Assembly (NCBI GenBank): GCA_964187785.1
Contig: OZ076417.1
Coordinates: 34,968,001-35,032,000 of the forward strand
From: Amphiscolops sp. MND2022
Taxonomy: Eukaryota
Reading direction: 5' to 3'
DNA: 64,000 bases
Shown here: piece after piece, positions 1 to 63,560 of the stretch
Numbering within the stretch: the first letter of the stretch is position 1
How the letters are laid out: each line of letters starts with the position of its first letter
Made by a program: the position numbers and the translations under genes
The notes under the pieces: generated by a model
The model's database searches: none
What the model was told of the DNA's origin: nothing
Seen by the model: only the letters and a program-made list of their open reading frames with translations

Positions 1-835
1 TCCGAGTAACCAACTTCTTTGACTCCTGTGGTTATTTCTCCAATGTCGACAGGCAACATTTCTTGCAATATATTTTTGTTCCGTCGTTAGGGATAATCCT
101 GAATTCGCAAGGATTATCGCTTTTTCAAAGTTTTGATTCTTTGATATAGAGGAATGATCAAAACTCAGGTAGTATGAAAGTCCCGGGTATGAAACAAACA
201 AGTCGTCGAATAAGGCACGAGCATCCTTGAGGTCTATTCCAGATTCAGTTTGTAACGTTGAAGAGACATCCTCAAACTTTTGGAGTGAATCGAAAAGTTT
301 GCGTGTTTCAAAATCTTCGTCAGCACTTGGGAGAAAAAGAACCAGATCACCATCTGTGGTATCAATAAACGGTTTCAGCTCAATATATCGGCTAATCATA
401 TTGTAAGTTGAGGACCATCTTGTATCATTCTGTATAATTGGTCGTAAAGGTAAAGACTTGCGCAAAATTGCCGATTTTTTCAGCGTTCCAAGATTTTTCA
501 TGAGTTCATGAATTCGCTTTATGACTGCTTCCAGGACAGAAACAATTTTTTTACAGCTAAATTCAACCGATGACTGTAACAACCAAGAAAATTTACTTGT
601 TATTTTTTGCGATCGCGACATTGAGCGGTTCGTTGTCACCAACTATAAAAGAGGCACTACTTCGCGTTCGGCCGAAAATTTGTAAAACGTAATCAATATA
701 TGCAATATGGCTGTCGGCAGTAAGATCTTCGTCATTCAAAAGTGGCGAAAAACCCAAAAGAGAAAACTTTGACTTTCCAGGTTCTTGACGATTTTCGTAA
801 ACATCAAATATACCAATGTAATAGTTGAAAAATTA
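1..835 (-). pseudogene. hAT-family transposase remnant (copy 1, runs off window start)
   Basis: Minus strand gives YYIGIFDVY..LLGFSPLLNDEDLTADSH..FIVGDN, then after a frameshift ..QNDTRWSSTYNMISRY..KFEDVSSTLQ. These are hAT RNase-H-fold motifs. Near-identical to 60673-61510. Confidence 0.8.
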
Positions 836-1599: not shown

Positions 1600-2760
1600 T
1601 ATGTCCCCAATCATGACATGTAATAGCAACGAACTAAGAGGCAGGTATTTTGTCCTAACGAAAGATAACATGGGCAGTTTTTGTCTCTCTGACTTGTAAT
1701 AAACACAAAATTTGTCTCAAAAGTCCTAGTCACACAAAAACACAAAACAATTTTGCATGGAATTTTTTAGAAACGTGGCATATATCCATAACTGTCTTGT
1801 CATCAAAATCTGGCAGATTTTGCTGAACTGCCATTTTTTCCTAAACATTCAACGAATGAGCTTGTTCTTGAATGGTCCTAAAACGATTGTGGAGAGTAAG
1901 ACCATATCATTATACATGTGTCGTGGAAACCGCATACATATCTTAAACTGTGAGAAAACAACTACCAAATGGGATAGATAGATAGTACGTCAAGATTTAA
2001 AATCTAATATACCCTAATATTGTCAAAGAAAAATTGCTCAATTTTGGATGACGTTTTAAAATATTCTGGCATTTTTTATATCTGGCTTAATACTGAAATC
2101 TGGCAGATTTTGATGAACTGGTACATTTTCGATTGGTTAGCAATTTTAGAGGCTGGCTTTTGTCTCTCTGACTTCTAATAGCAACAAATTTTGGCTAAAA
2201 ATGCAATTCAAAAGTGAAATTAATCATGACTAATTTTGGTCCCAATCGTGAGTAATTTTTTTACTCACGATTGGGACCAAAATATCACAGAATCTTTTTT
2301 CATTTTAGTATACTGAGAGGCCTCCTTTTTGTCCTCACGAAAGATATTAGGGACAAATTTTAACTGTCTGACTTCTAATAACAACAAAATTTGGCTAAAA
2401 ATGCAATTCAAAAGTGAAATTAATCATGACTATTTTTGGTCCCAATCGTGAGTAATTTTTTTACTCACGATTGGGACCAAAATATCACAGAATCTTTTTT
2501 CATTTTAGTATACTGAAAGGCCTCCGTTTTGTCCTCACGAAAGATATTATGGACATATCGTCCCTCTGGCTTTTCATAGCAACGAAATTCGGCTAAAAAA
2601 GTAACTCAAAGGTGGATTTAATCATGAATAATTTTGGTCACAAATTGTCACAAAGTTTGATCCTGGTCTCACAAAATTATTGACTGATCTTGCATTGTTA
2701 CTATTTTTGAATAACATGGCAGTCATACAAAAAATCACTTGAGTTCAAAATTTGGCAAAC
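1600..2760 (+). repeat. R1 modular repeat array
   Basis: Core gtggaaagtaagaccatatcattatacatgtgtcgtggaaaccgcatacatatcttaaactg plus tandem ~200-bp modules containing the palindrome. Many copies elsewhere in the window. Confidence 0.9.
2234..2282. repeat. R1 palindrome, perfect 22-bp stem with 5-nt loop (representative copy)
   Basis: ttttggtcccaatcgtgagtaa-ttttt-ttactcacgattgggaccaaaa. Further copies near 2436, 7204, 14243, 26756, 58759, 63121, 63321. Confidence 0.95.
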
Positions 2761-6890: not shown

Positions 6891-7790
6891 TTAAACTGTA
6901 AGAAAACAACTACCAAAGAGGGTAGTACGTCAAAATTGTAAAATCTAATATATCTTAATTTTGTCAAGGGAAATTTGTTCAACTTTCAATGACGTTTTAG
7001 AATATTCTGACATTCATATATATCTGGCTTAATATTGAAATCTGGCCGATTTTGATGAAAAGGTATATTTTCGAATGATTGGCAATTTTAGAGGCCGGCT
7101 TTTGTTTGCTCGAAAGGTATTATGGACATATTTTGTCTCTGACTTCTAAGAGCAACAAATTTTGGCTAAAATGCAATTAAAAAGTGAAACTAATTATGAC
7201 TAATTTTGGTCACAATCGTGAGTACTTTTTTACTCACGATTGGGACCAAAATATCACAGAATCTTTTTTCATTTTAGTATACTGAAAGGCCTCCTTTTTG
7301 TCCTCACGAAAGATTTTAGGAAAATATTTAACTCTGTATTCTATTAACAACGAAATTTGGCTAAAGAAGTTCTAGTCGCACGAAAACACTGAAAACATTA
7401 GCAACGAATATTTGTCTCTTTGACTTGTAATAAACACGAAATTCGTCTCAAAAGTCCTAGTCTCACGAAAACACTGATCAATCTTGCATGGCATTTTATG
7501 AAAACGTGGCATTTATTTAAAACTGTCTTGTCGTCAAAATATGGCAAATGTTTATCAACTGCCATTTTTCCATAAACATTCAACGGATGAGTTCGTTCTT
7601 GGATGGTCCTAAAACGACTGTGGAAAGTAAGACGATATCTTTATACATGTGTCGTGGAAACCACATACGTATCCTAAACTGTTAGAAAACAACTACAAAA
7701 GGTAGTACGTCGATATGTAAGTTTTAATATACCGTTTTAGTGTCATGGAAGTATTGCTCAATTTCGAATGACATTTTAGAATATTCTGAC
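6885..7790 (+). repeat. R1 array
   Basis: R1 core at ~6897 and ~7620, palindrome at ~7204. Abuts the ATG at 7791. Confidence 0.9.
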
Positions 7791-10700
7791 ATGTCTGATC
7801 GGGCTTGCTCATCGCAGTCACAAGAAGTGACCTGTGAGAAATGTGGGCAATTGTTGCCGAACAATAAAAGCAAGAACGAAGCACCGTCATACAAGAAGTA
7901 CAGAAAAAGCCCGACCAACCTAATTTCTTGTACCAATGGCACCTGTGATTATGTCACTGATCGGTTGTTCAGCCTCCAGCGTCATGAGAAGCAGTGTCCA
8001 GGGATGCCCTATGAGGACTGGAAGAAAAACGAAGTGACATGTGAGAATTGTGGACAGTTATTCACTAATAAGAAAAGTCGGATGCGTCATCAAAAGAACG
8101 CTAAATACTGTGTCAAGCAGAAAGCCAAGATTGATGCCGGCATAGAAGTGTCCATGTACAAATATCGTAAGTTATTTAACATTACTGAAGTCATTGAGTT
8201 TTTCGCTCGAATACTTATGATCTGGAAAATTAAAAAGGACCGTGTGTGGGCGGGGGTTTGGGAGGGGGATTAACAAAAAAGATCCATATCAAAATGCTTA
8301 CACATCTTTGTGTTTACACATGATGTTTTCCAGCAGCTGCAAAAGGTCGTCATAAAAGTCCTCATAATTGTCTGAGTTGTGGCAAGTTGTTCGCGTACCA
8401 GTACGTACTCCGGAATCACGTCGCAAGATCACTATCTTGCCAAGTAGCCCTAGCTCCAATTCCTGTTGATGTCACTTTCTCAGAGTATCCCCTATCTCCT
8501 TTTGGTACCACAGGGTACTTCGAATTTTGCGAGAGAATTCCTCTGGAATGTGGGTTTTCTTTCGACGAGTGGCAGGGTCCTCAGGAGAATCCAAGTGTGC
8601 ACTTAGGCTCTCTGTTGCAACACGGCATACCTCTGCTTTGGAAAGGTGGTGCAAATCACTGTCCCGGTATAAAGCTTCCCAAAGTTGACAGGAGTGCGCA
8701 TTTTCCCAGTGAAGTCCAGCAACTCCTGATGGCATCAAATTTGACTGATCCGGAGCAACAACTAGATGTGAAATCGGCAAAGATTGGCACTGTAAGCTTT
8801 TCATTATCTTTTCGCAAAAATACTGTTTCTTTTTAAAAGCCAAATTGTCTCGATTATTGGATTCATGTAGTGTTTTATCTATCATTATTTTCATCTTTCA
8901 CCATGATTATTATTTCACAAAAAATATTCATTACCTCTCTCCAATAAAACGATATGAATACTTCCTAGTTTCAGACGCAATCTCTATCCATACCGGAGTT
9001 CGTGGATGCTTTGAATTCATGTGGCCCCGATGACGTGAATTATCCATTGAATGTTATCGATATCAGGATTAAGCCAAAAGTGAGTTGGGAAACTTGATGA
9101 AAGAATAACCTCTTTTTTCAACTATTTTCATTTTTTTCAAATTAAGTTTTTGTGTTTAAGAAGCTGTACACAGTCCCAAAGATGGTAAGAGACAATTCCA
9201 TTGGGCACCTGGTTGAAAAACTCATTGGGAAGAATAGTCTCGAGCCTTATTCATGTGCCACTTCATATTATCTGCTGATTACGCAGGACTCAGCGCACAC
9301 AACTTGGCACCAAGACTTTTCAGCAACTTCTGTTTGCTATACTGTTCTTCGTGGCGAGAAAAGTTTTTTCTTGGTCAAGCCAACAAAAAAGAATATGGCA
9401 ATATTCGAGAAATGGTCAGATGCAGAAAATGACCAAACGTAAGATTTTTTTATTGAAACTAACGAAGAGTTTATAAAATTTACAAGAGTTTATTATAAAA
9501 TTAAAAATCAATTCTTTTGAACGAAACAATGGACACCTATAACTACAGAAACAGTGCATAAAAACTATTTTTGATTTATTTTGATGTTTTAGGCCCACAT
9601 TCTTCGGTGCGATCAATGAACTGGAAGAAGGATGCCTCCGACTCACTGTTACACCCAGTGACATTCTAGTTATGCCTGCCAACTACCTTCATTTTGTCCT
9701 CACGAAAGGTATTATGGTCTTCTTTAGTCTCTTTGAGTTATGAAAGATGTGTCAGTCGGTCTTTTTTGTAAATCGCTTTTACGTACACTTGACTAATTCT
9801 AAACGATTTTAGCTGACGATCACTTTCTAGTGTTTGATTCATTTTTTGTAACTTTGGCGTTTTTTCTGGTTATGGCACGATGCATAACTTTGCCACAACT
9901 TCATTCTTTCTTTTTCACTCGGCAGTGACAATACTCGTTTGCATGTTTTCCGCGTTCAATTTACACTTTCTCGCGATTTGATTGGTCCGTTTTTTCTCGC
10001 CAATACCGTCCGTTTAATCCGTTTGTTAACTTGTCTTCTACATTTACGGTGAACCAATCTTTGAATAATTCCTCAGATTGAATGATTGATCCTTTACATT
10101 AGGAAGGATGCCTTGACAAATAGTCAGCTATTCCCAGAGTTCTCCCCGGTGTTTGTACAATATGAAAATTGTACGGCAAAAGCCGATCTAATTTACATAA
10201 TTTACATGTCTACCACAACAGCTAATAATTATAATTAGTTTATGGAATAGTTCATTCCGAAATCTGTTAAAAATCGAGATGCGTACGAAATTGTTTTCCA
10301 GATATCATTTTCACACTGTTGGAGGACCGCGCCCAGTCCATTTTTGCTAGCGTTTGATAAACTGCCATTTTCTTAGATTGACATACAACGAATGAGCTCA
10401 TTCTTGAATGGTCCTAAAACAACTGTGGAAAGTAAGACCATATCATTATACATGTGTCGTGGAAACCGCTTACATATCTTTAACTGTAAGAAGACAACTA
10501 CTAAAGGGGGATGGATGGTTGTACGTCAAATTTTAAGTTTTAATGTACCGTTCTGGTGTCATGGAAATATTTTTCAATTTCGAATGGCATTTTGAAATAA
10601 TCTGGCATTTATTAATATCTGGTTAATCATTGAAATCTGGCAGAGTCCGTTAAAGTCTGACTTGCAATAACAAAAACATTGACTCAAAACTAATTTATAA

Positions 10701-11468
10701 GTGGAAATAATCATGAATAATTTTTGTCCCAATCGTGAGTAATATTTTTACTCACGATTGAAAACAAAAAATAATTTCATGTATTTCCTCAATCAAATCA
10801 ATACAGGTGACTCAATTGCAGTGGGGACCAATTTTTTGGCCCTTAGACACATCCCTATGATACGGGAAATGATGATCCTTGACCATTCGAGGACTTACGC
10901 GGATGTCAAGTTCCCTGATCTTCCCGAGCTGCTGGCATTGCTTCTTCTCACTGCAACAGAAAAAATTCAGAGAGCTTGTCCTTTCAAGTTTCGTTTATTC
11001 GACGCAGTGAAAACAATTGTTAATGAAAAGGCCGTCCAAGAGGTTTTTACAATTTGATAGGAAAAACTGTTCATTTTAAATTTCTAGTGTTTCACTCATT
11101 CAACCTATTTTCTTTTTAATTTGCAGATTCAACCACAGTTTTGCATGAACAAGTTGCGATTGCTTCTGGGCAGGAAACAACCGACCGGAACCCTCCAAGA
11201 TGCCGCAATCTCCAAAAAATATCTGGCAAGCGTCAGCATTAAATGCCCCGGTGACTCATACGCAACCATCCCCGATTACATTAACAATGTAGATGTTTTG
11301 AGTGAGTCGCGTGAGACCCGTGTTTCGACAGTTGAACTGCTGAGGGAGAATTCGCAAACTCCAAAATTTTGCGAAAACAAATTTCGACCTCATGCACTAC
11401 CGATAGTGGCTTCACTAAAAGGCATTAGAACTATCCCTAAAGAGGATGAACTCTTTGATATATGTTGA
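7791..11468 (+). CDS. C2H2 zinc-finger + JmjC histone demethylase-like protein (KDM2/KDM7-PHF8-like), 7 exons, ~636 aa
   Basis: Exons 7791-8166, 8334-8791, 8975-9079, 9161-9438, 9593-9708, 10807-11042, 11127-11468 have GT-AG ends, consistent phases and total 1911 nt without stops. Fingers: CTNGTC..RHEKQC, CENCGQLF..RHQ, CLSCGKLF..RNH. JmjC motifs: PLNVIDI, YYLLITQDSAHTTWHQDFSATSVCYTVLRGEKSFFLV, LVMPANYLHFVLT, GDSIAVGTNFL. The HxD..H Fe(II) triad and the 2-oxoglutarate Lys are present. True start uncertain because R1 abuts the ATG. Confidence 0.85.
9780..10330 (+). repeat. R2 dispersed repeat (intronic)
   Basis: gatttgattgg..gatgccttga..aatagtc..attcccag..gtttgtac is shared with 18560-19110. 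10190-10310 is the reverse complement of ~28835-28960. Confidence 0.7.
10360..10765 (+). repeat. R1 copy inside JmjC intron 5
   Basis: R1 core at ~10425 and a degenerate palindrome at ~10725-10760. Confidence 0.85.
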
Positions 11469-12366: not shown

Positions 12367-14895
12367 TCATTGTAAACTGGTTTGATATAAGGATCGATAA
12401 CTATTCGAACACTTGAAGTGACCACGACATGCTACGAAGCTACATCGAATCATGAAAAACCCGAATTCACGATGTTCAGTGAACCTCAAAATTTTGATGA
12501 AGGCATCTTCACCTTCTTTGTTACTTGCGATCACGTCCCATCGTTTCCCAAGCACACTGTCCCATGACTGATTAGACCCTTTGAGGTCATTGCTGATATC
12601 CCCAGAAAACTTCACTGTTTCTTTTGAGGACGTCGTTTCAAAACCACACATTTTACGGGTCAACGGCGTCGCTGGAATTAATGATTTTGTCATTGAATGT
12701 TTTTTCTGGGCAAATCCAACCATCCTTTTGACTGCTGAAAACACCGCGAAAGCTTGGTTAATAGGATGAACTAGAGTGTGGATATTGAATTCTTCTATTT
12801 CGTCATCGATAACTTGAACTTCTAGTGCGGGCATGCGTACTTCAAAATCGGGGTTTGTTTCTCCTATCATTTTAACAAACGCCTTTCGTTTGCTGCAATC
12901 AAAGAACAGTTCTTTTACCTCAAACGTCGCGTTTGCATAGTTGGTGAGAGACCCAACGTTCAGGATGTTGTTATAGCATGGCGCATACTTCAACTCAACG
13001 TTCTCGTCACTGTGTGGTATCAAAGATATTGCATCCACAAAAGGTATTGTTTTTGGGGGGGCATCGCTTTTTTGGTACGGGAGGCCTGGAATCGACTATG
13101 GTTGGAGGTGATTCAAGTTCTTCGTTGGTGTCATCTGGAGCAGCCTCATCAGGCAAGTTTGCCCGTAATTGTCGATAAGAGACAAAAAATTCTTTTCCTT
13201 CGTCATCAACGACCATGCACTGTCGCAGGAACGGATCGTTGATCATCACTGTCGCAGTAACAACTGATCCGCAGCAAGTAATCTCGCAATTTTCGAAGTC
13301 GTCGATACAGTCACAATCTTCGTCATTTGATTGCCAAAAGAAAACTTCGTCATTGCGCATTAACTTCCTTGGATTGAAAGGCAAGCTTCTACCCCTTTTC
13401 TTGCTCAGCGATTCATCCAGTTTTTGGGCTTTTCTAATATTCCAACGTCGCTGAAAAAAGTTGAAAGTTAGCTCTCGCTTTTCAAATTTTTATCAACTTC
13501 AATAATGGGTTTTTTGAAAAAAATATTGTGGAGAATATCAACACGTGGATTGTCATTGAAATCTGGCAGATTTTGCTGAACTGCCATTTTTTCCTAAACA
13601 TTCAACGAATGAGCTTGTTCTTAAATGGTCCTAAAACGATTGTGGAAAGTAAGACCATATCTTTATACATGTGTCGTGGAAACCGCATACATATCTTAAG
13701 CTACAAGAAAACCATTACCAAAGGGGATAGATAGTACGTCAATATTTAAATCTGACTGTATTGTCCTGGTTTCCACCACTTTAAGCATATTGTCCTGGTT
13801 TCCACCAAAATAGCATTCACTGTTCGATGGCCACGAAAGCTACTGTGGAAAGTAAGACCATATCATTATACATGTGTCGTGGAAACCGCATACATATCTT
13901 AAACTGAAAGGAAACAAATACCAAAGGGGGTAAGTACGTCAATATTTAAAATCTAATATACCGTATTAGTGTAATGGAGCAATGACTCAATTTTGAATGG
14001 CGTTTTTTGGAATATTCTGGCAATTATTCATATCTGGCCTAATATTGAAATCTGGCAGATTTGGATAAAATGATACATTTTTGATTGATTAGCAATTTTA
14101 GAGGCCGGCTTTTGTTCGCTCGGAAGATATTATGGACATATTTTCAAAATAGTATGGAGCTAAGACAAGTTGTCTCTCTGACTTCTAATAGCAGCAAAGT
14201 TTGGCTAAAAATGCAAATCAAAAGTGAAATTAATCACGACTTATTTTGGTCCCAATCGTGAGTAATTTTTTTACTCACGATTGGGACCAAAATATCACAA
14301 AATCTTTTTAATTGGAATCATGATTTAACTTTCATTTTTTGAATTTCCATGAATGGAAGTAGAACTTCTCAATTTTTGATGTTAAATGCTAGCCCTATAA
14401 ATAGTATGTCAAGGTTTAAATCTCACTTTTCTGTCTTGCCCTCAGAAATTTTGATTTTTTTGTTTGGCATTTTCTAATATTTTGGCATTTTCGAATATCT
14501 GGCTTGTCGTCTAAATTTTGCAAACTTCGTTAAACTTCCGGTTTCTAGTTAGTTCACTCCAACGAATGAGCGTAGCGAGTTATTCAATTTATAATTCGAT
14601 TTGTGTATTTTTTGTCCTCGAAACCTGTTTAGCATTTCATCGGAACTATGGCCTAAGAAATAAGAGAATTGTGGAAAAGATTTCGAAAAAAGTTTTGAAA
14701 TGTTATATCAACCTCATCTTCCCTGTCGATTTCTGGCACTGTTATGTCAACTGTTTTTCTCGTAGCCCACTCCATCCATTTGATTCTGACACTCCAGTCA
14801 CTCATGATTGCAGTGACTTTTGCAAGCTCCCAAATAAATGTTAGAGGGTCCAGGATATGGACCACTTCGTTCGTTTCGAACTTTTGAAGAAGCAT
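12367..14895 (-). CDS. Multi-Tudor/Royal-family-like protein, 2 exons, one frameshift
   Basis: Exon 1 14895-14713 (FETNEVVHILD..WELAKVTAI..SVRIKWMEW; resembles the PHF20-type Tudor pattern) ends GAG|GTTGAT and joins in phase 0 to ttttttcag|CGA at 13450. A second barrel-like unit follows (ATVMINDP..CMVVDDEGKEFFVSYRQLR). A 1-nt shift in a C7/A5 run at ~13050 links ORF 13007..13384 to ORF 12367..13038. Confidence 0.55.
13530..14330 (+). repeat. R1 array inside the Tudor-like gene intron
   Basis: Two R1 cores (~13640, ~13845) and a palindrome at ~14243. Confidence 0.9.
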
Positions 14896-15452: not shown

Positions 15453-18400
15453 ATGAATAATTCAAATTCCCAAAAGCAAACTCCTGCTCCTGATCCACCA
15501 TTGTCCTACTCATCTGTTCTAAGTAATTTCTCGACTCCATTGACAAACTTGACCACATGGTTGATCGAATCCTCAACTCCTTTGCTCAGCGGAAGTTCAG
15601 AAACTTCTTTGACAAATTCGAAACCCTCATTCGATGCAACAGTCTACTCGCAGAGCTCGCAGACAGTCTACACGCAGAGCTCGCAGAGCTCGATTACTTA
15701 CAATGTAGACGGGATTATGCAAGAAGAGCATCACGAGCCAAATCAGTCAGTCGAAGATCACGCGGTAACTCCTTCTCCTACTCTTGGCATTTCCAATTCC
15801 GTGGGTTTAACAAGCACCACAATTCCGACCTCAAGCCAGAAACAACTTGTTGACTCTTTTGAAGGAAGAGTCTACAATGCAGTCAGAACAACTCCCCCTG
15901 CAAAAAAATGCAAACCAGACTTGAAGACGGATGAAGCCAAAGAATGGCTAAAATCCTTCATAGTTGCCATTACGAGCCGTTACAAAAAGAATGTTAGCGC
16001 CCCAAAGAAGACCCAGATAAACTTTTCCAGAAGTCTGGTGGCCTACCTGTTTTTGTTTGTTGGCGTTGCTGGCATTTTGGACAAGGAAATCAGCAATATC
16101 ACTGTCCACGAGTTGGCTCAAGCCGTGGTACAAATGAAAGACTACCCTGATGATGAAGACATACCATTTTCCGTCGAGCCAAATGAAAGTAAGTAATTAT
16201 GCATAACCTAAACCCTTAACCTCTACAGTCTTTTTTGACCTTTTCGAACACTTGATGAAATTCAAAGTAGCTATCAATTTTGAATGATCCAAACAACAAT
16301 TAGATATATTGTCCTGGTTTCCACCATCTTGAGCTGAATTTGAACATTGTAAACGCCGCGACCAGGCCGCCCAAATTTTGTCCCCTGTGTCCCCAACCAT
16401 CATGACATGTAATAGCAACGAATATTTGTCTCTTTGACTTGTAATAAACACGAAATTCGTCTCAAAAGTCCTAGTCTCACGAAAACACTGATCAATCTTG
16501 CATGGCATTTTATGAAAACATGGCATTTATCCATAACTGTCTTGTCATTAGAATTTGGCAGATTTTGATGAACTGCCATTTTTCCGTAAATATTCAACGG
16601 ATGAGTTCGTTCTTAAATGGTCCCAAAACGACTGTGGAAAGTAAGACGATATCTTTATACATGTGTCGTGGAAACCGCATACATATCTTAAGCTGTAAGA
16701 AAACAACTACCAAAGGAGTAGTATGTCAATATTTAAATCTGACTGTATTGTCCTGGTTTCCACCACTCTAGGCATATTGTCCTGGTTTCCACCAAAATAG
16801 CCTTCATTGCTCAATGGCCACGAAAGCGACCGTGGAAAGTAAGACCATATCTTTATACATGTGTCGTGGAAACCGAATACATATCTTAAACTGTAAGAAA
16901 ACAACTACCAAAGGGGATAGTACGTCAATATTTAAAACCGTATTAACCGTCAAATGGTCATGGAAATATTGTTCAGTGTTGAATGGCGTTGTAGAATAAC
17001 ATGTCATTTAATATTATTTGGCTTGTCATCAAAATCTGGCAAATTTTGTTTAGGTGTGTTTAGATTTTCGATTGGTTAGAGTTCTTAGAGGCCAAAATGT
17101 TCTGGGCCTATTTTGTCTTTCTGACTAATAAAAATTTTTGAAAAAACTGAAAACTCGAAACTAACTTACAAGTTGAATAGATGTCTTTTTTTGCAGATTC
17201 TGTTTCTCGAGTACAATACAAGCCACCACGCTGGCTAATCGAAGGTTTGGTTGAGTATGCCAGCCACACGAGACCTGACTTTCTCAGCAAAACCGAAGGT
17301 GTGAAATTTCAACGATGTGTCAACGAAAGTGATGACCGACCAGTCGTGACAGAGCTCCTGTTCGTCAATTCTGTTGGGAAGTCTTGTTTTAGACCGAGCC
17401 ATGTTGTCGACCAGTATTTGATCCCTGTACGTTTGTTTTTTTTTGTCATTTAAATTTATATATAGTTCGGAGTTTTCAAAACAACTTCGATTGAAAAATC
17501 TACATCTACTAAACCATTGTAGTTCTAGTGCAAAAGATCAAAGATTTATTCGAAAGCATGTGTTTCAGGTACTTCAACAATGTAAAAAACCAGCCAATCA
17601 GCTGAAGTTCAAATTGGAACTCATCTATCCAATTGTTGACGACCCTGAAGCACGATTGCCAAAATTGAAAAATCAAATCAAGGAAGTGCAAGGAAAATTT
17701 GGCAATGAATTTGACCAGGATACCATCAAAACATGCGTGAGAAAGCATCAAGATGCTCAACGATACGCACGACAGTCAGCTCGAGCCACAACGTTCTTCA
17801 AATGCATGAACGGGAAATGTGACTTGAACATCTTGGAGAAAAGAATCGAAGGATTTTTCCAGAGGCAGAAATGGACAACACCAGAAGACGTCAAACAGGA
17901 TATTAGAAAAGTGTTTCTGTTGGTTCTACCTATGCTACAAAATCCAGATTCGAGAAGGATGGGCAGTGATGGTTCTGCTAAAATAATTTACAAAGGGATG
18001 GCACATAACATGGATTTCGAGTGCCAGACCGTCCTATTCGAACGATGTGACACGCAGAGCTGGCCAGGCGTATGTCCAGCCACTTTCAAATCTTATGGAC
18101 GCGGAGTGGTCAGCACACAGAAGTTTTTTAAAAACGAGATTGTTCTTGACTACCACGGTCAAATACTTGAGAAAATGACATTTACACAAGCTCTGGCGAT
18201 GGAAGGCGTACAGCCCGAGTATCTGATGGAGGTACGTAATCTAAAGTTTAAAGTTTTTTGTTAGATACATACCAAGTGAATAAAGACAAATAAAAATAGA
18301 TCTAAAAAGTCAAAGTATGAGTATTTGTTCTTTTATCAATTTTGGACCTAGAGAGCTAAAAGTGAAGAAGAAAAAAATTATTAGTTCACTAGGACCTAGC

Positions 18401-19589: not shown

Positions 19590-20250
19590 TTTGTCCTGGT
19601 TTCCACCAAAATAGCATTCACTGTTCGATGGCCACGAAAGCGACTGTGGAAAGTAAGACCATATCTTTATACATGTGTCGTGGAAACCGCATACACATCT
19701 TAAACTGTAAGAAAACAACTACCAAAGGGGATGATAGATAGTACGTCAATATTTAAATTTGACTGTATTGTCCTGGTTTCCACCACTCTAAGCATATTGT
19801 CCTGGTTTCCACCAAAATAGCATTCACTGTTCGATGGCCACGAAAGCTACTGTGGAAAGTCAGACCATATCATTATACATGTGTCGTGGAAACCGCATAA
19901 ATATCTTAAACTGTAAGAAAACAACTACCAAAGGGGGTAGTACGTCAATATGTAACTTTTAATATACCGTAGTAGTGTCATGGAAATATTGCTCAATTTT
20001 GAATGACGTTTTAGAAAATTTTGGCATTTCAAAAAACTGGCTTGTCATCGAAATCTGGAATATTCCTTTAATCTTCAGTTTTTCGACTACTTTACTTTAA
20101 CGAATGAGCTTCGTGTTACGTCCATAATTATATCAGTTCGTATTGGCTTGGTTTTAAAATATTTTAGTCACGAAAATAGGGATTCCACGTCACGTAAAGA
20201 GAAGGTTGTTAATTATTTATTCAAGAGCATCTTTTTATTATGGTGTTAAA
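19590..20250 (+). repeat. R1 array plus tail
   Basis: R1 cores at ~19640 and ~19850. Tail 20050-20250 is inverted relative to 3835-4020. Confidence 0.85.
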
Positions 20251-20338: not shown

Positions 20339-23300
20339 ATAGTCACTGTGACCTTCATACATCTTCATCACTAGTTGAGTTGAATACAACGTTGTTGAAA
20401 TCTCATATCAACGCACTTTTGATGGACCCCTTAGCACTTTGGAATGCCCATTCTGTACAAGTCGACAAAAATTTGCTGTTTATCGACTGCAAAATGTTCG
20501 AAGTCATGGCCGAGAAACGATTCACCAACAAATACAGAAAATTCGAAAAGATCATTGACGATGCATTCGCCGGGTGTGGGTTGAATACCAAAGACTTACT
20601 CCGGAGAATTCCCATGAAAGGTCAAAGCAAACCGACTGTGTGTATAGCAGTGAGTAATTTTTTTTCTAATCATCATTTTTTGCAAATGTCTATCTTTGTC
20701 ATATTTGGCGCGATAATACTTTTTTCTAATTCGTGCTTCGCTGGCGTTTTGTATCCAATTCGTTAATTGAGTGTTTCGCTTCAAAGTCGGTTAAAAATCT
20801 GGATGCGTACGCAATTGGTTTTCAATTGTTTTCTTCATTGTGTTGTAATACCGCCCCTAATCCTTGTTTGCTTGCATCGCAAATGATTCGCAACATGCGG
20901 TTTCTTTTATATTGCTAAAAATACATTTACTAAATACATTACTAAAACATTTACATATCCACCACAAAAACCGTTTCCGAAAAAATATTCTTTACCGGGA
21001 AAAATTGCGATGTTTCTAATCTTCCGAGGGTTCAAGGATTTCCAATGGACCGACGCAAGGAAGAGATTTGTGGAATGCTTTGTCCCTCGATATTTGATTC
21101 CTTACGAAGATACTTTCAATTTTCCTCCTCTTGTAACACCAACCTTGAATCCCCTTGCAATACGTACCTCGAATCTGTCTGCGCCACCAACAATGGTCCT
21201 TGAAACAATGGATTCACATACACCACCAACAATGGTCCTTGAAACAATAAATTCGTTTGCAACACGAAGAATGGACCTTGGAACAATGGATTCGCATACA
21301 CCACCAACAATGATCCTTGAAACAATAAATTCAATTGCAACACCAACAATGGACCTTGGAATAATGGTTTCGCATGCACCACCAACAATGGACCTTGAAA
21401 CAATGGATTCCCATGCACCACCAACAATGGACCTTGAAACAATAGATTCGCATGCGCCACCAACAATGGACCTTGAAACAATGGATTCGCATGCACCACC
21501 AACAATGGACCTTGAAACAATGGATTCCCATGCACCACCAACAATGGACCTTCAAACAATGGATTCGCATGCACCACCAACAATGGACCTTGAAACAATG
21601 GATTCGCATGCACCACCAACAGTGGACCTTGAAACAATGGATTCGCATGCACCACCAACAATGTACCTTGATGCAGCGACAAGTCCAAATCCTAAAATGA
21701 GGAGAACAAAAAAATTGAACAAAGAAGCAGCCACTTGTTTCTGGAAAAGGGTCATCGATGAGGCCAACGATAATAAAGAAATTGGGTTCAATGAGTTTAT
21801 AGAACAAGTGAAAGACAATATGATTAAACGGAAATACCAGGGATTCACAAAGAAGGAAGAAGAGAATGTGGTGAAAATTCTAATCGAGCGTCTTTTTGAG
21901 AATCGAGGATCGACCAAGGAAATCAGTCACATTCTATCACTTACTGCTCAAACTGGAAATATAGAGGAAGTCATAAAACTTATCAGATCGAAACTTTCGG
22001 TAGTTGGCTTGGGATACAACGTAGTACCCTGTATACGCTTGATCAAGAAATCGACAGCTGAAATCCAGACCTATTTTGTTTCACTATGCCATCCCGAAAG
22101 AACGTTCTCCGGTTTCCGATGCGATCTGATAAAATTTGTTGAGCTGGCCGCATACCTGCTCGGAATGTATGATTTATGTGGTTTGAGAATTGATATCTGG
22201 GGCGACGGTTGTGAAATTGGAGGCCTGGAAACAACCCGTTTTGCCTTTCGAGTGTTTTCGGAAAAAATTAGTTGCCAGTCATCAAGTTCGGTGTTCTGTT
22301 TTGCATCGTATCGAGGAAAAGACAGCCGATTCGCGATGGAACAGAACCTTGGACCAACTATAGCTGGTGATCAAAGTTCGGGTTGGCTCTACCAGAAAAC
22401 GTCGGAGTTGTCAGATCGTGGAGTTAAACTAACCTACAGTGGAGATACACCAGTTTTGCTACGCCTGATACTGGGAATTTCCTGTGAAACGAATTTCAAA
22501 TCAAAAATGCCACTTCATATTCCTGATAATAGCTTTTTGCCAACAAATTGCCACCCTGAAACAGGTCTGAGAACCGATCTCAAGATACCTTTCCGAGAAG
22601 AACTGCCAAAAACATCCCTTGTTTATTTCCAAGACGTGCGATGTATATGCCCTGACCCGACGCACATGATCACCAGATGTGTTGAAAACGACTTGAGGAG
22701 AGTGGCGCAGAAAATAATCACTGACAAGTATCCCGATTATGGCCCCTCACTCAAAGCCTTTGAAGAAAATCTTACACGACGTGATGCAAAAAGGCCATAT
22801 TTCCAGTTCAATGTGAACACAAAACTAGGTTCTGGTGTTGGTACTGTAAACAGTGTGTCATTAGCCGGAAGTAATGCCCTATCTATTATAGCAGAAAAAG
22901 AGGAATTGGCTGGCGCAAATGATTGTTCAATAGGGAATCTTTTTGAAGATGTATGGGATCCCAAAAACGATGTTGTTATTGGGAGTGAATCTGCTGCTAG
23001 TGCACAAATACTAAAACAACTTCTCCCAGAACTTTTCGATAAGCCTCACCCTAGTGACAAGACATCCGCCAATCTCTACATGTCGAAGACAGATGCATGT
23101 GAATTGCTGCGCTCCAGCCTGAACCGCTGTGCAATTCTCTTGAGATCTGAGCAGTTTGACGCCCAATGCTACAAAAAATGGGCTGAAATATATTATCAGA
23201 CAACCATTTTGTTATTTGGTGAATGCTCATTGACACTATATAAGTTGAAGCTCGCAATGATGCCACAGATTGTAGAAGGAGGGTTTGTGGAAAGACCTTT

Positions 23301-24387
23301 TGACCACATGTGCGAAGGGCTTGAAAAATCCAATCATCACGCAAATCGCTATTTCCAGACAAAAACCATGCGTGGTGGCTTACCATAAAGATCCTCTTTT
23401 CCTGAAATTGTCATCTTCATTTGGAAAGTTCCTCCGTGCATCAATTGAATTGAAAACAAAGAAGTATGAATGTTTGGAAATATCTGAAATACTTGAGAAA
23501 CTTGTTGATGATTTGGATGCCAAATACCCCGGACCAACATACCTCGAAATTTGCAAGACCCCAATTTCCTCGACTTCTCTTGCAATCGGGAAGTCGCATC
23601 CCGATTCTCAATTTTTGAGTGGTATGAGGTTCTTTTCAATTGGAAGATTAGGTGTAGTCGATAGGTGTAGTAGATTTCGTTAACGAAGGATGTTCTGATT
23701 AAACTCATCAACGAAATGGGGGGCATATTCATTGAACACGATCAAGCAAGCAGACACCCTCATGAAGACACATTCACGACTGCCTAATTGCTTCGTTCTG
23801 GTCAAAGACGAAGAAGACCTAGTAATCGCCACAGGCGCTGTGCAAGAAATTGAAGACCTGAAAAAGAAAAGGCCGCTGGCGAAAAAAATAAAGCGAAGTA
23901 AGTCAAGTCTTTCCACGTCCCAGTCTTCAGATTCGGACAGTCAATACCCATCATCGCAATTCACAGCAAGACAGAAAAAGAAACCGCTCAATACTCACAA
24001 ATTGCTCAAAAATTTGCCCAAGGAGGTCTAACTTTTTTGAAGAAAAATTTTCTCATGGATGTCAAAAAAGTAGTTACGTTGTTAGACCCCAAAGATTACA
24101 CCATTGCCCCCGGAAGTAATTTTCGTCGAGCCAGAGTAAATGATATGAGACCACTCTTCCTTGATCAAATATCAGGCAAAAAATCAAATGAGAATATATC
24201 GGCTGTGGCTTATCTCAAACGATACAGAAATGGACAAATAGATTACCAAAACTCTTTTTCGAGAATGATGATGACACTTTTGCCGGAAAAATTGACAACA
24301 TTGATGATGATGACGACGACGTCGATGAAGAATGTTCTCAGATCACTTTGTAGACTCCAGAGTTCAACAAAAAATGGGACACCGTAA
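20339..24387 (+). CDS. RAG1/Transib-like DDE transposase-fold protein with 13-aa repeats and a frameshifted C-terminal BRCT-like domain
   Basis: Exon ~20339-20649 (donor GTGAGT), then the 792-aa ORF 21010..23388. Motifs align by eye to RAG1 core: IWGDG (ESCDG, D600), YSGDT (GYDEK, D708), PDPTH (IDALH), LYKLKLAMMP (NYFHKTLAHVP), CEGLEKSNH (SEGNESGNK, E962). Downstream frames give LSGMRFFSIG..LTKDVLIKLINEMGG..CFVLV..FLKKNFLMDV..LLDPKDY (BRCT-like), with about 4 frameshifts after 23385. Confidence 0.65.
21184..21672 (+). repeat. Coding minisatellite, 39-bp unit x ~12.5 (PPTMDLETMDSHA)
   Basis: Twelve full in-frame units plus one partial in ORF 21010..23388. Confidence 0.95.
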
Positions 24388-24639
24388 TTATGTTGTTGAT
24401 ATTTGTGTTCATATCTAGCGATGCATTACTATTTCGAAATAATACTATTAGAATTCTGTTCTTGAATTTGCGTATCTCTGTGATAAACATAACTCCAATT
24501 CAAGTTAGTTGTAAGAGACTATATTTTTCATACTCTGCTGAAGATCAGATACAGTGAAGATACGATACCAACACATCGTACCCCGTTACGTCGCGAGAAG
24601 TAGAGGTTATGATAAGCCATGGTAAACCAATCGAAAAGT

Positions 24640-27490
24640 TGGAGTTAACCAAAATCTGCCAGTTTTTATTTAAGAGCAAAACAATAAAAAATGCCACAAA
24701 TTTACCAAACTCCATTCAAAAATGAACAATAGTTCCATGACACTAATACGGTATTTTAAAATTTACATATTGAAATATTATCTCTGGTAGTTGTTTTCTT
24801 ACAGTTTAAATTATGTATGCGGTCTCCACGACCCATGTATAATGATATGGTCTTACTTTCCACAGTAGCTTTCGTGGCCATCGAACAGTGAATGCTCTTT
24901 TGGTGGACACCAGGACAATATGCTTAAAGTGGTGGAAACCAGGACAATACAGTCAGATTTAAATATTGACGTACTATCTTACCTTTGGTAGTTGTTTTCT
25001 TACAGTTTAAGATATGTATGCGGTTTCCACGACACATGTTTAAAAATATGGTCTTACTTTACATTGTCGTTTTGGGGCCATTTTAAAAACGAACTCATCC
25101 GTTGAATGTTTACGGAAAAATGACAGTTCATCAAAATCTGCCATAATTTAATGACAAGACAGTTATGGATAAATGCCATGTTTTCATAAAATGCCATGCA
25201 AGATTGATCAGTTGTTTCGTGAGACTAGGATTTTTGAGACGAATTTCGTGTTTATTACAAGTCAAAGAGACAAATATTCGTTGCTAACAGTCTCGCAGCG
25301 CCTTGTTAAAGGGCCCAAAGACTAATAACAGAACTAATGATCTGTCTAGTTAAAGAGAGATTTGATGAGTGAATACTTTCAACTGACGCAACTGTATTTT
25401 ACGTTTAGACCATATCGCGAATGATCTTTCACTCTTTTTCTTTTTCTACGGTTGTTTTTACTAACAATCTGCTAGCGATCTCGAGGTTTGTTCTAGAGCT
25501 AGCCTTTTGCCACATGGACCAAATTTAGTCATCAATAATTTCACGTTTGAATTGCATTTTTAGTCAAAAGTTGTTGCTATTAAAAGTCAGAGACAAAATA
25601 AGTCCATTATATCTTTCGAGCGAACGATTCCCGGCCTCTAAAAACGCTAACCAATCAAAAATGTACCATTTCATCAAAATCTGCCAGATTTCAATAACAA
25701 GTCAGATATAAATGAATGTCAGAATATTCTAAAACGTCATTCAAAGTTGAGCAAAATTTCCATGACAATATTAAGGTATATTAGATTTTAAATATTGACG
25801 TACTATATCCCCTTTGGTAGTTGTTTTCTTACAGTTTAAGATATGTATGCGGTTTCCACGACACATGTATAATGATATGGTCTTACTTTCCACAGTAGCT
25901 TTCGTGGCCATCGAACAGTGAATGCTATTTTGGTGGAAACCAGGACAATATGCTTAAAGTGGTGGAAACCAGGACAATACAGTCAGATTTAAATATTGAC
26001 GTACTATCCCCTTTGGTAGTTGTTTTCTCACAGTTTAAGATATGTATGCGGTTTCCAGGACACATGTATAATGATATGGTCTTACTTTCCAAAGTTGTTT
26101 TCATGGCCATCGAACAGTGAATGCTATTTTGGTGGAAACCAGTACAAAATGCTTAAAGTGGTGGAAACCAGGACAATACAGTCAGATTTGCATAATAACG
26201 TACTACCCTTTGGTAATGGTTTTCTTGTAGTTTAAGATATGTATGTGGTTTCCATGACACATGTATAAAGATATCGTCTTACTTTCCACAGTCGTTTTAG
26301 GACCATCCGAGAACGAACTCATCCGTTGATTGTTTATGGAAAAATGGCAGTTGAAAAAAATTTGCCATATTTCGATGACAAGACAGTTTCAAATAAATGC
26401 CACGTTCCCAAAAAATGCCATGCAGAAATGTTTTCAGTGTTTTCGTGTGACTAGGACTTCTTTAGCCAAATTTCGTCGTTATTAGAATACAGAGTTAAAA
26501 TATGTCCCTAATATCTTTCGTGAGGAAAAAAAAGAGGGCTTTCAGTATACTAAAATGAAAAAAGATTGTTACATTTTTATCCCAATCGAGAGTAAAAAAA
26601 TATTCACGAATGAATAATTTCACTTTTGAATTGCATTTTTAGTCAAATTTCGTTGTTATTAGAAGTCAGACAGTTAAAATATGTCCTTAATATCTTTCGT
26701 GAGGACAAAAGGGAGGCCGTTCAGTATACTAAAATGAAAAAAATTTTGTGATATTTTGGTCCCAATCGTGAGTAAAAAAATTACTCACGATTGGGACCAA
26801 AACTATTTGTGATTAATTTCACCTTTGAACTACTTTTTCAGCCAAAATTCGTTGCTATTAGAAGTTAGAGAGACAAAAAGTGTCCTCAATATCTTTCGTG
26901 CGGACAAAAGCCGGCCTCTAAATTGCTGACTATTCGAAAATGTACCATTTTATCAAAATCGGCCAGATTTCAATTTTAAGGCAGATATCAATAAATGCCA
27001 GAATATTCTAAAACGCCAATCAAAATTGAGTGATTGTTCCATGACACTAATACGGTATATTAAGATTTAAATTTTGACATATACTCCCTCTGGTAGTTGT
27101 TTTCTTACAGTTTAAGATATGTATGCGGATTCCACGACACATGTATAAAGATATGGTCCTACTTTCCATTGTCGTTTTAGTACCATTCAAGAACTAGCTC
27201 ATTCGTTAAATGCTTTTGAAAAACAGGCAGTTGACAAAAATTTGCTAAATTTTGATGACGAGGTAGTTATAAATATATGCCATGTTTTCTTAAAATGCCG
27301 TGCAAAACTGTTTCTGTGTTTTGGTGAGACCAAGACCTTTTTAGCCGAAATTCGTGAAATGCTATTGGAAAATGGCAGTTGATAAAAATCTGCCACGTTT
27401 TGACAAAAAGACAATTCTGAATAAATGCCTTTTTTTATAAATTGCTTGCAAACTTGTTTTCAATGTTTTGTTTTCATTAGACTAGGACTT
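24640..27490 (-). repeat. Large R1 array in reverse orientation
   Basis: At least six reverse R1 cores (~24830, 25030, 25870, 26070, 26270, 27150) and a palindrome at ~26756. ~24700-25800 is an inverted copy of ~58450-59500. Confidence 0.9.
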
Positions 27491-47636: not shown

Positions 47637-48226
47637 CTAGCACATCACTATCACTAAATTGTCATCGATAATTAGTTCTGCAGGCTTGAGTATAACGTAA
47701 CAACGTCTTACGAATACTAAAAGACCCACAAAAAACAGCACATGTAATGTTTTCTAATAAACATATGAGTAAACAAAACATCAAAATGCATGTCAAAAAA
47801 AGAACAGTGAGTCTGATATGAGCTGTCGATTCAATAATCAAAGCGCGTTGTCAAACTATTCCTGATAAAAAATGTCTTATGATGCATTTTCTCGATTTGA
47901 GGTCAAAGTGGCAGTCAAAATTGTCTGAAGCTCTCTACAATCTTTTCAATGACTCAGAAGCAACAAAAAGGAACCCAGGAATTATTTGACATCTGTTTGA
48001 TAATACAAGACTTTACGTTCTAAGCCAAATTCTAAGTTTACCGCCTTTCCGTAACCTAAAACTAGGTTAACAAAAAAAACGAAACGAAGAAATGGATCTT
48101 TTTATTTCAAAATAAGAGTATTTATGAATAAACTCTGAATTTTTTTCACACTTAACAATCAATATGTTAAATTGGAGCCCTCGTTCCGGAAGCAAGTCTA
48201 CATACCGGCCAAAGCGTGAACAAAAA

Positions 48227-49138: not shown

Positions 49139-49350
49139 ATTGGAATCTTTTTTGACACAAAAGTTTTTTTTCGATCAACCGCAAAATTGATCCCGAAGAA
49201 CTTCGACGAAGAGAAAAATTAAAATTTAAATATCAGTTCAATCAAGATTTCGTTTTTCCGCAATTAAATGTTCGATGTTTGAACTAAATATTGGCTTTAG
49301 CTTCAATCTTCGTGTACCAATAGTTTTTAAAGATTTCCTAATAAAAAATT

Positions 49351-52334: not shown

Positions 52335-52810
52335 TCAAACTATAGCACAAACTGCTCCACAGGCAATTCCATTTGCGGAATAGGTCTGTAGGTACAGTCG
52401 GTTCCCATTTTCATCCACGTTGGCTACCATCCTGTCTTTTCCCGCGGCTTTTTCCGGCTGATTGTCTCCCCACACCAGTTGAGAATGACTCGTTTGTCCG
52501 CCAGCAATATCCCAGACCAAAGGGTCATCAGTTTTCACACCGGTCCAGAAACATTCGTTTTCCAGACTAGTGTAGTAAAAGTCCAGTTGCATGGTGTTTC
52601 CGGAGAAATCCTGAGCCAACTGACCGGAGCTTTCGTCACAGGTTTTCGCCGCTTGGTCAAAACCAGATTTCTCAGGTATAAACTTGAGTCATCTTGTAAT
52701 CTGCATTTGGGTCCCGTTGCAAGTTTCCTGGCCAAAACCACCATGAGCTGCGGGGAAACATTCTCTCAACCTAGCTCTTTTGAATTGAAATTGAAGTCCA
52801 CTTAGAGTTT
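52335..52810 (-). pseudogene. 5'-truncated open copy of the lectin gene (TSP1 end + CTL)
   Basis: Matches 48227-48702 with few substitutions and no stops. Begins after ttttcacaccAG. Confidence 0.8.
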
Positions 52811-56432: not shown

Positions 56433-56745
56433 CATTAGAGTGCACAGGCAAGCCTTATTTGCTCAAAGCGCAACATAGTGCGTTCAATACCTCGGATTCC
56501 ACGACCATACCTTTAACCGTGCAAAATTGGCAAATTACGTCATTTGTCCCGGATTCCACGGATTTAGTCGTGGATTCCAGTAACAAATGCTTAGCTGTAC
56601 GAACTGTCGGCATGCAGCGGTGTCCCGGATTCCACAAAAACGTAAGTTTTGCGAAATGAACCAATCAGATTGCAGAAATCATAAATTTCCTGGATTCCAC
56701 GACTTTATGCTTGACGCGATACGCGGCATCTCTCCTTTAATTAAA
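56433..56745 (-). mobile_element. Partial second copy of the gtggaatcc MITE
   Basis: Reverse complement of ~36940-37257, including the TIR cattagagtgcacaggcaag. Confidence 0.85.
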
Positions 56746-58099: not shown

Positions 58100-59830
58100 A
58101 AAATAGGTATACTAAGAGGCCTCTTTTCGTCCTCACGAAAGATTTTTTGGTTTATATTTTAACTGTCTGACTTCCAATAGCAACGAATTTTGGCTTTAAA
58201 ATGACTTTGTCGCACAAAAACTTTGAACACAATCTTGCAAGGCATTTTATAAAAAAATGTCTTGTCATTAAAATATGGCAGATTTTGATGAACTGCCATT
58301 TTTTATAAGCATTCAACGAATGAGCTCGTTCTTGAATGGTCCTAAAACGACTGTGGAAAGTAAGATGATATCTTTATACATGTGTCGTGGAAATCACATA
58401 CATATCTTAAACTGTAAGAAAACAACTACCAAAGGGGGTAGATAGTACGTTAGTATTTAATTCTGACTGTATTATTGTACGTCAATATTGAAATTTTGAT
58501 ACACCGTATTAGTGTCATGGAAAAATTGCTCAAAATCCAATGACGTTTTAGAAAATTTTGACATTTATTCATATCTGGCTGACTATTGAAAACTGGCAGA
58601 TTTTGATGAAATGGTACATTTTCGATCAATTAGCATTTTTAGAGACCAGCTTTTGTTCGCTCGAAAGATATTATGGACATATTTTGTCTCTCTAACTTCT
58701 AATAGCAACGAATTTTGGCTAAAAATGCAATTCAAAAGTGAAATTAATCAAGACTAATTTTGGTCCCAATCGTGAGTAATTTTTTTACTCACGATTGGGA
58801 CCAAAATATCACAGAATCTTTTTTCATTTTAGTATACTGAAAGGCCTCTTTTTTGTCCTCACGAAAAATTTTAGGGACATATTTTAACTGTCTGACGGCT
58901 TATAACAACGAAATTTGGCTAAAAATGCAATCCAAACGTGAGATTATTCATGACTAAATTTGGTCCATGTGGCAAAGCGCTAGCTCTAGAACAAACCTCG
59001 AGATCGCTAGCAGATTGTTAGTAAAAACAACCGTAGAAAAAGAGAAAGAGTGAAAGATCATTCACCATATGGTCTAAACGTAAAATACAGTTGCGTCAAT
59101 TGAAAGTATTCACTCATCAAATCTCTCTTTGACTAGACAGATCATTAGTTCAGTTATTAGACTTCGGGCCCTTTAACAAGGCGCTGCGAGACTGTTAGCA
59201 ACAAATATTTGTCTCTTTGACTTGTAATAAACACGAAATTCGTCTCAAAAGTCCTAGTCTCACGAAAACACTGATCAATCTTGCATGGCATTTTATGAAA
59301 ACCTGGCATTTATCCATAACTGTCTTGTCATCAGAATATGGCAGATTTTGATGAACTGCCATTTTTCCGTAAATATTCATCGGATGAGTTCGTTCTTAAA
59401 TGGTCCCAAAACGACTGTGGAAAGTAAGACGATATCTTTATACATGTGTCGTGGAAACCGCATACATATCTTAAACTGTAAGAAAACAACTACCAAGGGT
59501 AGTATGTCAATATTTAAATCTGACTGTATTGTCCTGGTTTCCACCAAAATAGCCTTCATTGCTCAATGGCCACGAAAGCGACTGTGGAAAGTAAGACCAT
59601 ATCTTTATACATGTGTCGTGGAAACCGCATACATATCTTAAACTGTAAGAAAACAACTACCAAAGGGGATAGTACGTCAATATTTAAAACCGTATAAACC
59701 GTCAAATGGTCATGGAAATGTTGTTCAGTGTTGAATGGCGTTGTAGAATAACATGTCATTTAATATTATTTGGCTTGTCATCAAAATCTGGCAAATTTCG
59801 TTTAGGTGTCAGATTTTCGATTGGTTAGAG
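58100..59830 (+). repeat. R1 array
   Basis: Cores at ~58350, 59410 and 59580, palindrome at ~58759. Confidence 0.9.
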
Positions 59831-61510: not shown

Positions 61511-61595
61511 TGAACTAATAGTTCAAAATGTTACACTGCAATTAACAATTTCCCTTAACATACATTTGGGTGACGAGTTTTCGTCTAAATGACAC

Positions 61596-62564: not shown

Positions 62565-62596
<32 letters not shown>

Positions 62597-63560
62597 GAAA
62601 GACTTAATTCCCTTTGTATTAAAAGGCATGTTCTAAAAGGCGGTATAAATGACTTTTACAGGGTAAAAAGTGAAAAAAATTTCAAGCACGACAGATGCTA
62701 CAAGAGCACTTAATAAACCAAGTGCAAGAACGATTTATATCGAAGGAAGACACTGATTATATCATTATACATGTGTCGTGGAAACCGCATACATATCTTA
62801 AACTGTGAGAAAACAACTACCAAAGGGGATAGATAGATAGTACGTCAAGATTTAAAATCTAATATACCCTAATATTGTCAAAGAAAAATTGCTCAATTTT
62901 GGATGACGTTTTAAAATATTCTGGCTTTTTTTTATATCTGGCTTAATACTGAAATCTGGCAGATTTTGATGAACTGGTACATTTTCGATTGGTTAGCAAT
63001 TTTAGAGGCTGGCTTTTGTTCGCTCGAAAGATATTATGGACATATTTTGTCTCTCTGACTTCTAATAGCAACAAATTTTGGCTAAAAATGCAATTCAAAA
63101 GTGAAATTAATCATGACTAATTTTGGTCCCAATCGTTAGTAATTTTTGTACTCACGATTGGGACCAAAATATCACAGAATCTTTTTTTCATTTTAGTATA
63201 CTGAGAGGCCTCCTTTTTGTCCTCACGAAAGATATTAGGGACATGTTTTAACTGTCTGACTTCTAATAACAACAAAATTTGGCTAAAAATGCAATTCAAA
63301 AGTGAAATTAATCATGACTAATTTTGGTCCCAATCGTGAGTAATTTTTTTACTCACGATTGGGACCAAAATATCACAGAATCTTTTTTCATTTTAGTATA
63401 CTGAAAGGCCTCCGTTCTGTCCTCACGAAAGATATTATGGACATATCGTCCCTCTGGCTTCTCATAGCAACGAAATTCGGCTAAAAAAGTAACTCAAAGG
63501 TGGATTTAATCATGAATAATTTTGGTCACAAATTGTCACAAAGTTTGATCCTGGTCTCAC
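62270..63560 (+). repeat. R1 array (duplicate of 1600-2760)
   Basis: Palindromes at ~63121 and ~63321. Confidence 0.9.
62566..62758 (-). mobile_element. 5'-truncated non-LTR retrotransposon (CR1/L2-like 3' end) with (GTA)n tail
   Basis: Absent from the 1-3112 copy. 5-bp TSD atatc at 62561-62565 and 62759-62763. Minus strand reads SSFDINRSCTWFIKCSCSICRA*, then a 3' UTR and a (GTA)n tail. Confidence 0.85.

Follow-up and report, generated by a model that had tools for sequence, protein, structure and literature searches.

A likely spliced intron in a transposon-borne JmjC gene of Amphiscolops sp. MND2022 was gained once, within a single gene family (family A), and is built largely from repeats of the transposon that carries the gene. 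The end of the preceding exon recurs in R1, a tandem repeat of the same transposon, which quite probably copied it from the gene. The gain and its source are well documented, the direction of the exon match less firmly so. The DNA analyzed, here called the window, comprises 64,000 nucleotides of contig OZ076417.1 (positions 34,968,001 to 35,032,000, forward strand; assembly GCA_964187785.1). Positions below refer to the window (Table 1), and genome-wide searches covered 1.07 Gb.

Table 1. Features of the window that bear on the intron, its repeats and the carrier transposon.
Feature	Position	Strand	Remarks
R1 array	2162..2643	+	200-nt period; holds unit 2527-2552
R1 array upstream of JmjC gene	7100..7370	+	first unit is the G-form (GAAAGGTATTATGG)
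Zinc-finger JmjC cargo gene	7791..11468	+	7 inferred exons, 636-aa open frame
JmjC exon 5 (inferred)	9593..9708	+	520 candidate copies, of which 150 scored, with protein identities of 74-100%
Segment M, exon end common to R1	9686..9708	+	codons L-H-F-V-L-T-K plus G of Gly
Family-A-specific phase-1 intron	9709..10806	+	GT..AG, 1098 nt, AG|GT at both ends; likely spliced
Intron start homologous to R1 part after M	9709..9746	+	up to ~120 nt in other A subfamilies
Intron 3' part: R2, then R1 hairpin part	10353..10772	+	M absent
Palindromic pair of short motif	10729..10761	+	motif common to A, B and C
JmjC exon 6 (inferred)	10807..11042	+	continues G-D-S-I-A-V-G-T-N-F-L
Transposase-like ORF	20887..23388	+	RAG1/Transib fold predicted
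R1 array, inverted	26456..26909	-	
Element terminus	56433..56453	+	21-nt terminal inverted repeat type, 5'-CATTA
R1-type units, next tandem element copy	58107..58966	+	
R1 array	63014..63531	+	201-nt period

The cargo gene is KDM2/7-like by sequence, its JmjC domain being closest to PHF8/KDM7/KDM2 (best PDB matches PHF8/KDM7, E 5e-12), and its demethylase role is putative. The HxD...H set is present as H363, D365 and H439 of the inferred gene model. The original prediction had placed the catalytic His at the end of the exon, and this was borne out: the H439 codon (9690-9692) encodes the third ligand and aligns with the His of KDM7/KDM2A. The JmjC region is multicopy, with all 40 of the copies scored among 133 DNA candidates at least 94% identical. 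For the next exon, about 85 family-A matches were found before identity dropped to 39-47%. The genome holds at least eight diverged multicopy families (A-H) of KDM2/7-like JmjC genes, five of which (D-H) came from a Pfam JmjC search of the genome. The outgroup JmjC genes are all element-borne, translation of 12 JmjC loci (top matches or singletons) revealed no host KDM2/7 gene, and homologues outside this genome amounted to one 95% match.

The carrier is a DNA transposon of ~47 kb (of three fully bounded copies, two measure 47-48 kb); 3/3 full elements and 6/8 short derivatives are flanked by a target duplication of 2 bp. A 25-mer of the terminus has 606 exact copies genome-wide, and 8 of the 12 fetched were non-autonomous derivatives of 430-1043 nt with both ends present. 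R1 was considered as the terminal inverted repeat and rejected, because it is dispersed through the interior of the element, whose ends are formed by a different repeat of 21 nt. The predicted model of the transposase ORF has a pLDDT of 90.3, and its top Foldseek matches are RAG1 (E 1e-6, 10-14% identity), with TM of about 0.4-0.5 to RAG1 and HzTransib and conserved D/E columns. The ORF has 308 relatives, some with a BRCT domain, and gave no sequence match in Pfam or PDB; in an alignment of 66 proteins, conservation of ≥85% was reached by no Cys column, and an H(3-4)H pair was not found. Its N-terminal part contains a 39-nt in-frame tandem repeat (12.6 copies, 21180-21671). A viral (Polinton-type) carrier was rejected, as the core ORF has the predicted RAG1 fold and no virus-type family was found in the 20 ORFs scanned, bar retrotransposon fragments elsewhere in the window.

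The CMCT clade comprises EnSpm/CACTA, Mirage, Chapaev, Transib, Plavaka, ESTA, as well as Lanisha, according to the available text of PMC12730594. The carrier resembles this clade in its CA..TG termini, its 2-bp target duplication (2-5 bp in the clade), its RAG1-like fold and its cargo of an epigenetic enzyme (TET/JBP there); it differs in that C(2)C and H(3-4)H are not evident and in that the cargo is a KDM2/7-like JmjC gene. On the predicted model, the carrier works like a CMCT-type cut-and-paste transposon with CA..TG termini; as neither C(2)C nor H(3-4)H was found, it is left outside the clade. The RAG1/Transib-fold family lacking these motifs is possibly an unnamed lineage. The same transposase adjoins every one of these JmjC families (A-E, G and H) except F, where a 20-kb surrounding stretch showed none; together the JmjC families and their common transposase point to an old radiation of demethylase-carrying transposons.

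Several other features of the window were observed. R2/R3 modules lie between the cargo genes (7400-7790, 13550-14309, 16413-17092, 19590-20086 and 24625-26487), one of them ending at the JmjC start codon, and may be shared promoter or transposase-binding modules. The ORF at 17422-18264 has an end that we take, by eye, to be SET-domain-like, and no Pfam SET match was obtained for this piece. Near 60682-61314 there is a nested fragment that looks, by eye, like a hAT transposase. A PAN/C-type-lectin-like gene segment is repeated three times in tandem at 47876-56074, and a 165-nt tandem array occupies 49343-50333. The region is tandemly duplicated at an offset of ~63.4 kb (window 1-600 and 60673-62565; G000:C9:35040562), and the window copy is rearranged versus other A copies.

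The intron splits K-G|D right after the third metal-binding His. Continuation of the reading in families B and C places the next exon of family A at 10807, so that the intron corresponds to 9709-10806. An AG at 9812 was rejected as acceptor, since the resulting frame breaks the JmjC pattern and the stretch is missing in other A subfamilies. Among 28 A loci, 25 reached the next exon and three were too short; the GT and AG occupy the same places in all 25 distinct copies, the window itself included, and intron length ranges from 663 to 2846 nt. When 9709-10806 is removed, 636 codons are open in the seven-exon model. In exon 6, synonymous changes exceed replacement changes (pS 0.04-0.21 versus pN 0-0.022 in 10 A-subfamily pairs), and the exon is under purifying selection among A subfamilies. 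Given the open frame, the constant GT and AG and the selection on exon 6, 9709-10806 is likely spliced.

Families B and C read straight through K-G-(N/D), with a gap of 0 in 12/12 copies, and in families D-H the reading likewise runs on across the intron site in 16/16 aligned loci (31 examined; most of the 15 without alignment were unrelated JmjC genes). Exon 6 is 45-53% identical to the intronless sister families. An exact degenerate pattern, which diverged cases would escape, gave no match to an intronless A junction. On the JmjC tree, two inner forks of which are open and whose long branches meet elsewhere, family A stands beside B+C and G+H, amid intronless families. As at least three independent losses would otherwise be needed on the tree, a single gain is far simpler; the intron was gained once, within family A, and seven related JmjC families are without it. 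Families B-H provide a precise empty site in several outgroups, as expected of a recent gain. The original prediction had proposed a comparison of homologues as its check, and this comparison revealed R1-free families that keep the codons yet have no intron. Another intron, of 81 nt at 9080-9160 (near aa 313), is present in A and at or near the site in G and H, and missing in B, C, D, E and F. It was rejected as a second A-specific gain because of the intron at or near the site in G and H, a loss in B/C being equally likely.

The template for the intron filler is identifiable: in nine introns examined, 42-89% of the length is accounted for by two repeat modules of the window, a share that is 80-89% in the five shortest. 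The intron runs in the order R1 part after M, tail, R2, R1 hairpin part and 34 nt to the AG, versus R2, R1 units and tail in the arrays, and is therefore a circular permutation of the module, opened at M. Its 3' part aligns to window 1819-2285 at 73.5% over 472 columns, and the M-less junction type of this part was seen in introns only. Divergence from the nearest R1 is 29-43% at the intron start and 9-23% in the 3' part, and M differs at 2/22; the last 34 intron bases match R1 weakly, at about 15/34 by hand count. The R2 core and the short hairpin motif also occur in B and C and are therefore older than A. The right arm of the hairpin is in the B/C state in 23/25 introns and in the other state in 45/45 R1-array matches, a polarity that speaks for copying from gene to R1, read at a single site.

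Two other sources of the intron were rejected. Tandem exon duplication fails because the intron is not a copy of a flanking exon, the self-search (blastn word 7, E<=0.01) giving no match to exons 5 and 6. A discrete mobile unit with its own ends does not fit a permuted internal module of variable length that has no match to the element termini. In a family-B locus (L051, G000:C1:40035295-40036019), a tandem R2 array lies in a different JmjC intron, so that repeat invasion of cargo-gene introns is not unique; family C has a short intron without an array.

R1 is a tandem unit of 200 nt. As had been predicted, 9692-9717 and R1 at 2527-2552 agree at 25 of 26 bases. The 26-nt pattern matches the window 15 times at <=3 mismatches, where 100 shuffles give an expectation of 0.00; the match is real, and chance is excluded. 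It reaches upstream to 9686, with 21/23 identities of 9686-9708 to the R1 unit at 2521. The weaker similarity that had been noted within the intron was likewise recovered against the 63014-type unit (8/10, 7/10, 8/10, 5/10, then background), petering out across the first 30-40 intron bases. As a unit, R1 is confined to family-A elements: it was found neither in 40 kb around two B copies and one C copy nor in 20 kb around D-H copies. The tie between repeat family and cargo gene thus stands as a shared history in which the intron is new and built from element repeats.

The genome-wide distribution of the motif is equally restricted. The G-form 15-mer, in an exact search that misses diverged cases, has 96 matches, and all 96 lie in family-A elements. 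The JmjC exon-intron junction of A copies accounts for 72 of these; the other 24 open R1 arrays of A elements as their first unit (12 read directly and 12 placed by a 20.3-20.6 kb offset from a JmjC exon), so that the donor G also exists outside the gene, for one at window 7100. The A-form of the motif has 230 matches genome-wide, of which 100 were listed; among those listed, 17/17 on contig 1 adjoin an A gene or terminus. The original prediction that a single A>G makes the donor was misleading, because the empty site of family C already reads ACGAAAG|GTGAC, and the GT of the intron can therefore be the gene's own AG|GT proto-splice site.

The direction of the 23-nt match was judged from the codons. 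Those of L-H-F-V-L-T-K are present in B and C, which excludes R1 as the source of the exon, and M is identical at 17-19/22 positions between R1 and these R1-free families. In a comparison with 5,168 ungapped windows of ten aligned B/C blocks, the top joint B/C match of R1 was the homologous exon end, at 36/44, a score reached by 8/1000 dinucleotide shuffles (p≈0.008); extrapolated over the whole repeat pool (~2.4 kb), the shuffle p climbs to roughly 0.1. Control A stretches in the same comparison gave 32, 35, 33 and 32 of 44, the 35/44 coming from one 1.07-kb stretch. R1 reads CTC like B and C, most A genes now reading CTT, and every piece of the R1 unit is present in order at the JmjC junction locus. 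Judged by these comparisons, R1 probably copied the exon end from the gene. Amplification of R1 from the junction, as originally proposed, is thereby favored for the 23 nt on the exon side, the intron itself being built from element repeats. The proposal that an R1 copy was exonized fails, as the same codons stand in R1-free, intron-free sister families.

Other details of M and of the acceptor bear on how the exchange took place. Module heads without M are common elsewhere in A, and others carry M as an extra of ~45 nt. M may also have arisen internally, because its 3' half resembles a motif, ending in TCACGAAA/CCACGAAA, of which there are further occurrences in other A modules and in the R2 of family C. 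In agreement with copying from gene to R1, the intron module is M-less and the acceptor AG keeps register with the first GAAAG of R1: it lies 38 nt from the hairpin anchor in 15/25 introns and 36 nt in 10/25, and in 20/24 R1 units the anchor and GAAAG are 38-39 nt apart. This in-register AG could be a coincidence and is explained equally well by a microhomology return. Given a divergence of the intron start of 29-43% versus 2/22 in M, the likeness may stem not from a single copying event but from a short tract converted later. The AG|GT at both intron ends overlaps the splice consensus and, being expected at many introns, is a weak sign of repair.

The explanation that we moderately favor is that element repeats made the intron of family A by template-switching repair at AG|GT and that the exon end and intron start were then copied into repeats, giving rise to R1. 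A break at K-G|D would have been filled from a dispersed R2/hairpin module of the element, and the duplicated AG|GT would have supplied donor and acceptor, leaving the protein unchanged. Next, a duplication or circle, bounded by a point 23 nt inside the exon and by the first base of the exon that follows, would have recombined into dispersed modules, been shortened to the 200-nt unit (exon end, intron start and intron end) and been amplified, and the donor G and the A of the His codon would have decayed once outside the gene. The intron would still exchange sequence with the arrays, which would explain its length range. Many inversions and duplications distinguish the A copies from one another, as would fit an element that often undergoes repair and recombination internally.

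The converse direction, from R1 to the gene, is possible yet rather doubtful. R1 would already have held M (for example, as a deletion derivative of an old element motif) and resembled the exon by chance; a broken gene end, pairing over the 23 nt of homeology, would have invaded R1, copied the tail, R2 and the hairpin, and gone back to the gene at the GAAAG(G) microhomology, producing the intron in one step. This accounts for a circularly permuted module whose start falls directly behind M and whose end keeps register with the other GAAAG of R1, for the likeness of the 3' half of M to other element motifs and for the presence of M or a variant in all R1 units found, an exact degenerate pattern, which diverged cases would escape, having given no M-less R1 unit that could have been an intermediate in copying from the gene. 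Microhomology-guided template switching is also described for animal TIR elements, in the passages available of PMC8277862. The converse direction demands, however, that R1 match two R1-free genes by chance at the exact site, synonymous positions included, at a level that so few shuffles attain, and it requires a separate deletion of M from the inner intron module. In addition, the intron hairpin is farther from R1 (mean distance 0.19) than R1 units are from one another (0.065). A closed loop, in which element repeats made the intron, the junction became the 200-nt repeat and junction copies planted the intron in intronless copies, is quite unlikely.

If intron and R1 instead share old homology, the near-perfect 32-nt core would be a later short gene-conversion tract between junction and arrays. 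The sharp fall in identity past +9, the divergence of the intron start of about 40% versus 9-23% for the 3' part (nearest R1) and the G-form in two first-unit lineages agree with this, but coding and donor constraint suffice for most of the step in identity, flanking bases of the gene are absent from G-form units, and the first origin of M is left unsaid; we regard this account as improbable. Very improbable is that the match arose by chance, or that the intron is old and disappeared from the other families. A different JmjC intron, near aa 313, was probably lost in B and C, which lends loss some credit, yet the expected number of matches is zero, homology is found at both intron ends, and the independent losses would have to be accepted. 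Least probable of all is R1 as an introner-like mobile unit of many genes, or as the exonized source of the codons: its G-form does occur 24 times outside the gene, but every other match is one and the same junction, the codons predate R1, and the A-form matches listed on contig 1 keep to A genes and termini.

AG|GT intron gain from transposon DNA and intron turnover in CACTA genes (PMC4158355) are known already. In the passages available of PMC3443670, most gained introns are without a traceable source, gain at a proto-splice site is modeled by double-strand-break repair or transposon insertion, and in Drosophila short direct repeats at intron ends show no excess over background. The present case is like proto-splice gain as given there in its precise AG|GT gain, the empty site in relatives, the identifiable insert and, as far as an AG|GT that overlaps the splice consensus can count, the short end repeats. 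It is unlike it in that the filler is an internal repeat module of the carrier, not a whole transposon or organelle DNA, in that 23 nt of homology extend across the exon boundary, and in that the target is a cargo gene of the transposon. Introners, for which a family means at least four similar introns once paralogous genes are removed (PMC9860276, available part), share with it the origin of a spliceosomal intron from a transposon and a target that may lend splice sites; here, unlike there, one event struck one gene and was multiplied only by transposition of the whole 47-kb element. Against the introner-like origin originally suggested, the genome-wide search for the donor motif found all 96 exact matches inside one element family, so a family of introners in non-homologous genes was rejected.

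Pack-TIR gap filling and template switching, as set out in the accessible text of PMC8277862, also involve microhomology-guided copying of nearby sequence in TIR elements. Host sequence is captured there, whereas the exchange here is internal, between repeats and the element's own cargo gene; by analogy, the template-switch chemistry likely applies to both steps. The transposase genes of plant CACTA elements, DNA transposons of a related kind, likewise show turnover of introns, but mostly by loss, with one putative gain and no source named for it in the passages at hand (PMC4158355). In the literature covered, at the level of titles and starts of abstracts and with sparse coverage of subscription journals, no description was found of a cargo gene in which repeats of the carrying transposon itself make up an intron, or of exon sequence flowing back into such repeats.

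This was one event in a selfish element and no general intron factory, so its reach is limited. It is a rare case in which the source of a new intron is still readable, and it suggests that a satellite-like transposon repeat can arise from the end of a coding exon. If true, the closed loop would let a spliceosomal intron spread in a homing-like manner with no homing enzyme involved. One genome retains the empty site (in seven families), the filled site (in about 85 copies) and the template, and because all three survive together, a repair-type origin can be examined base by base.
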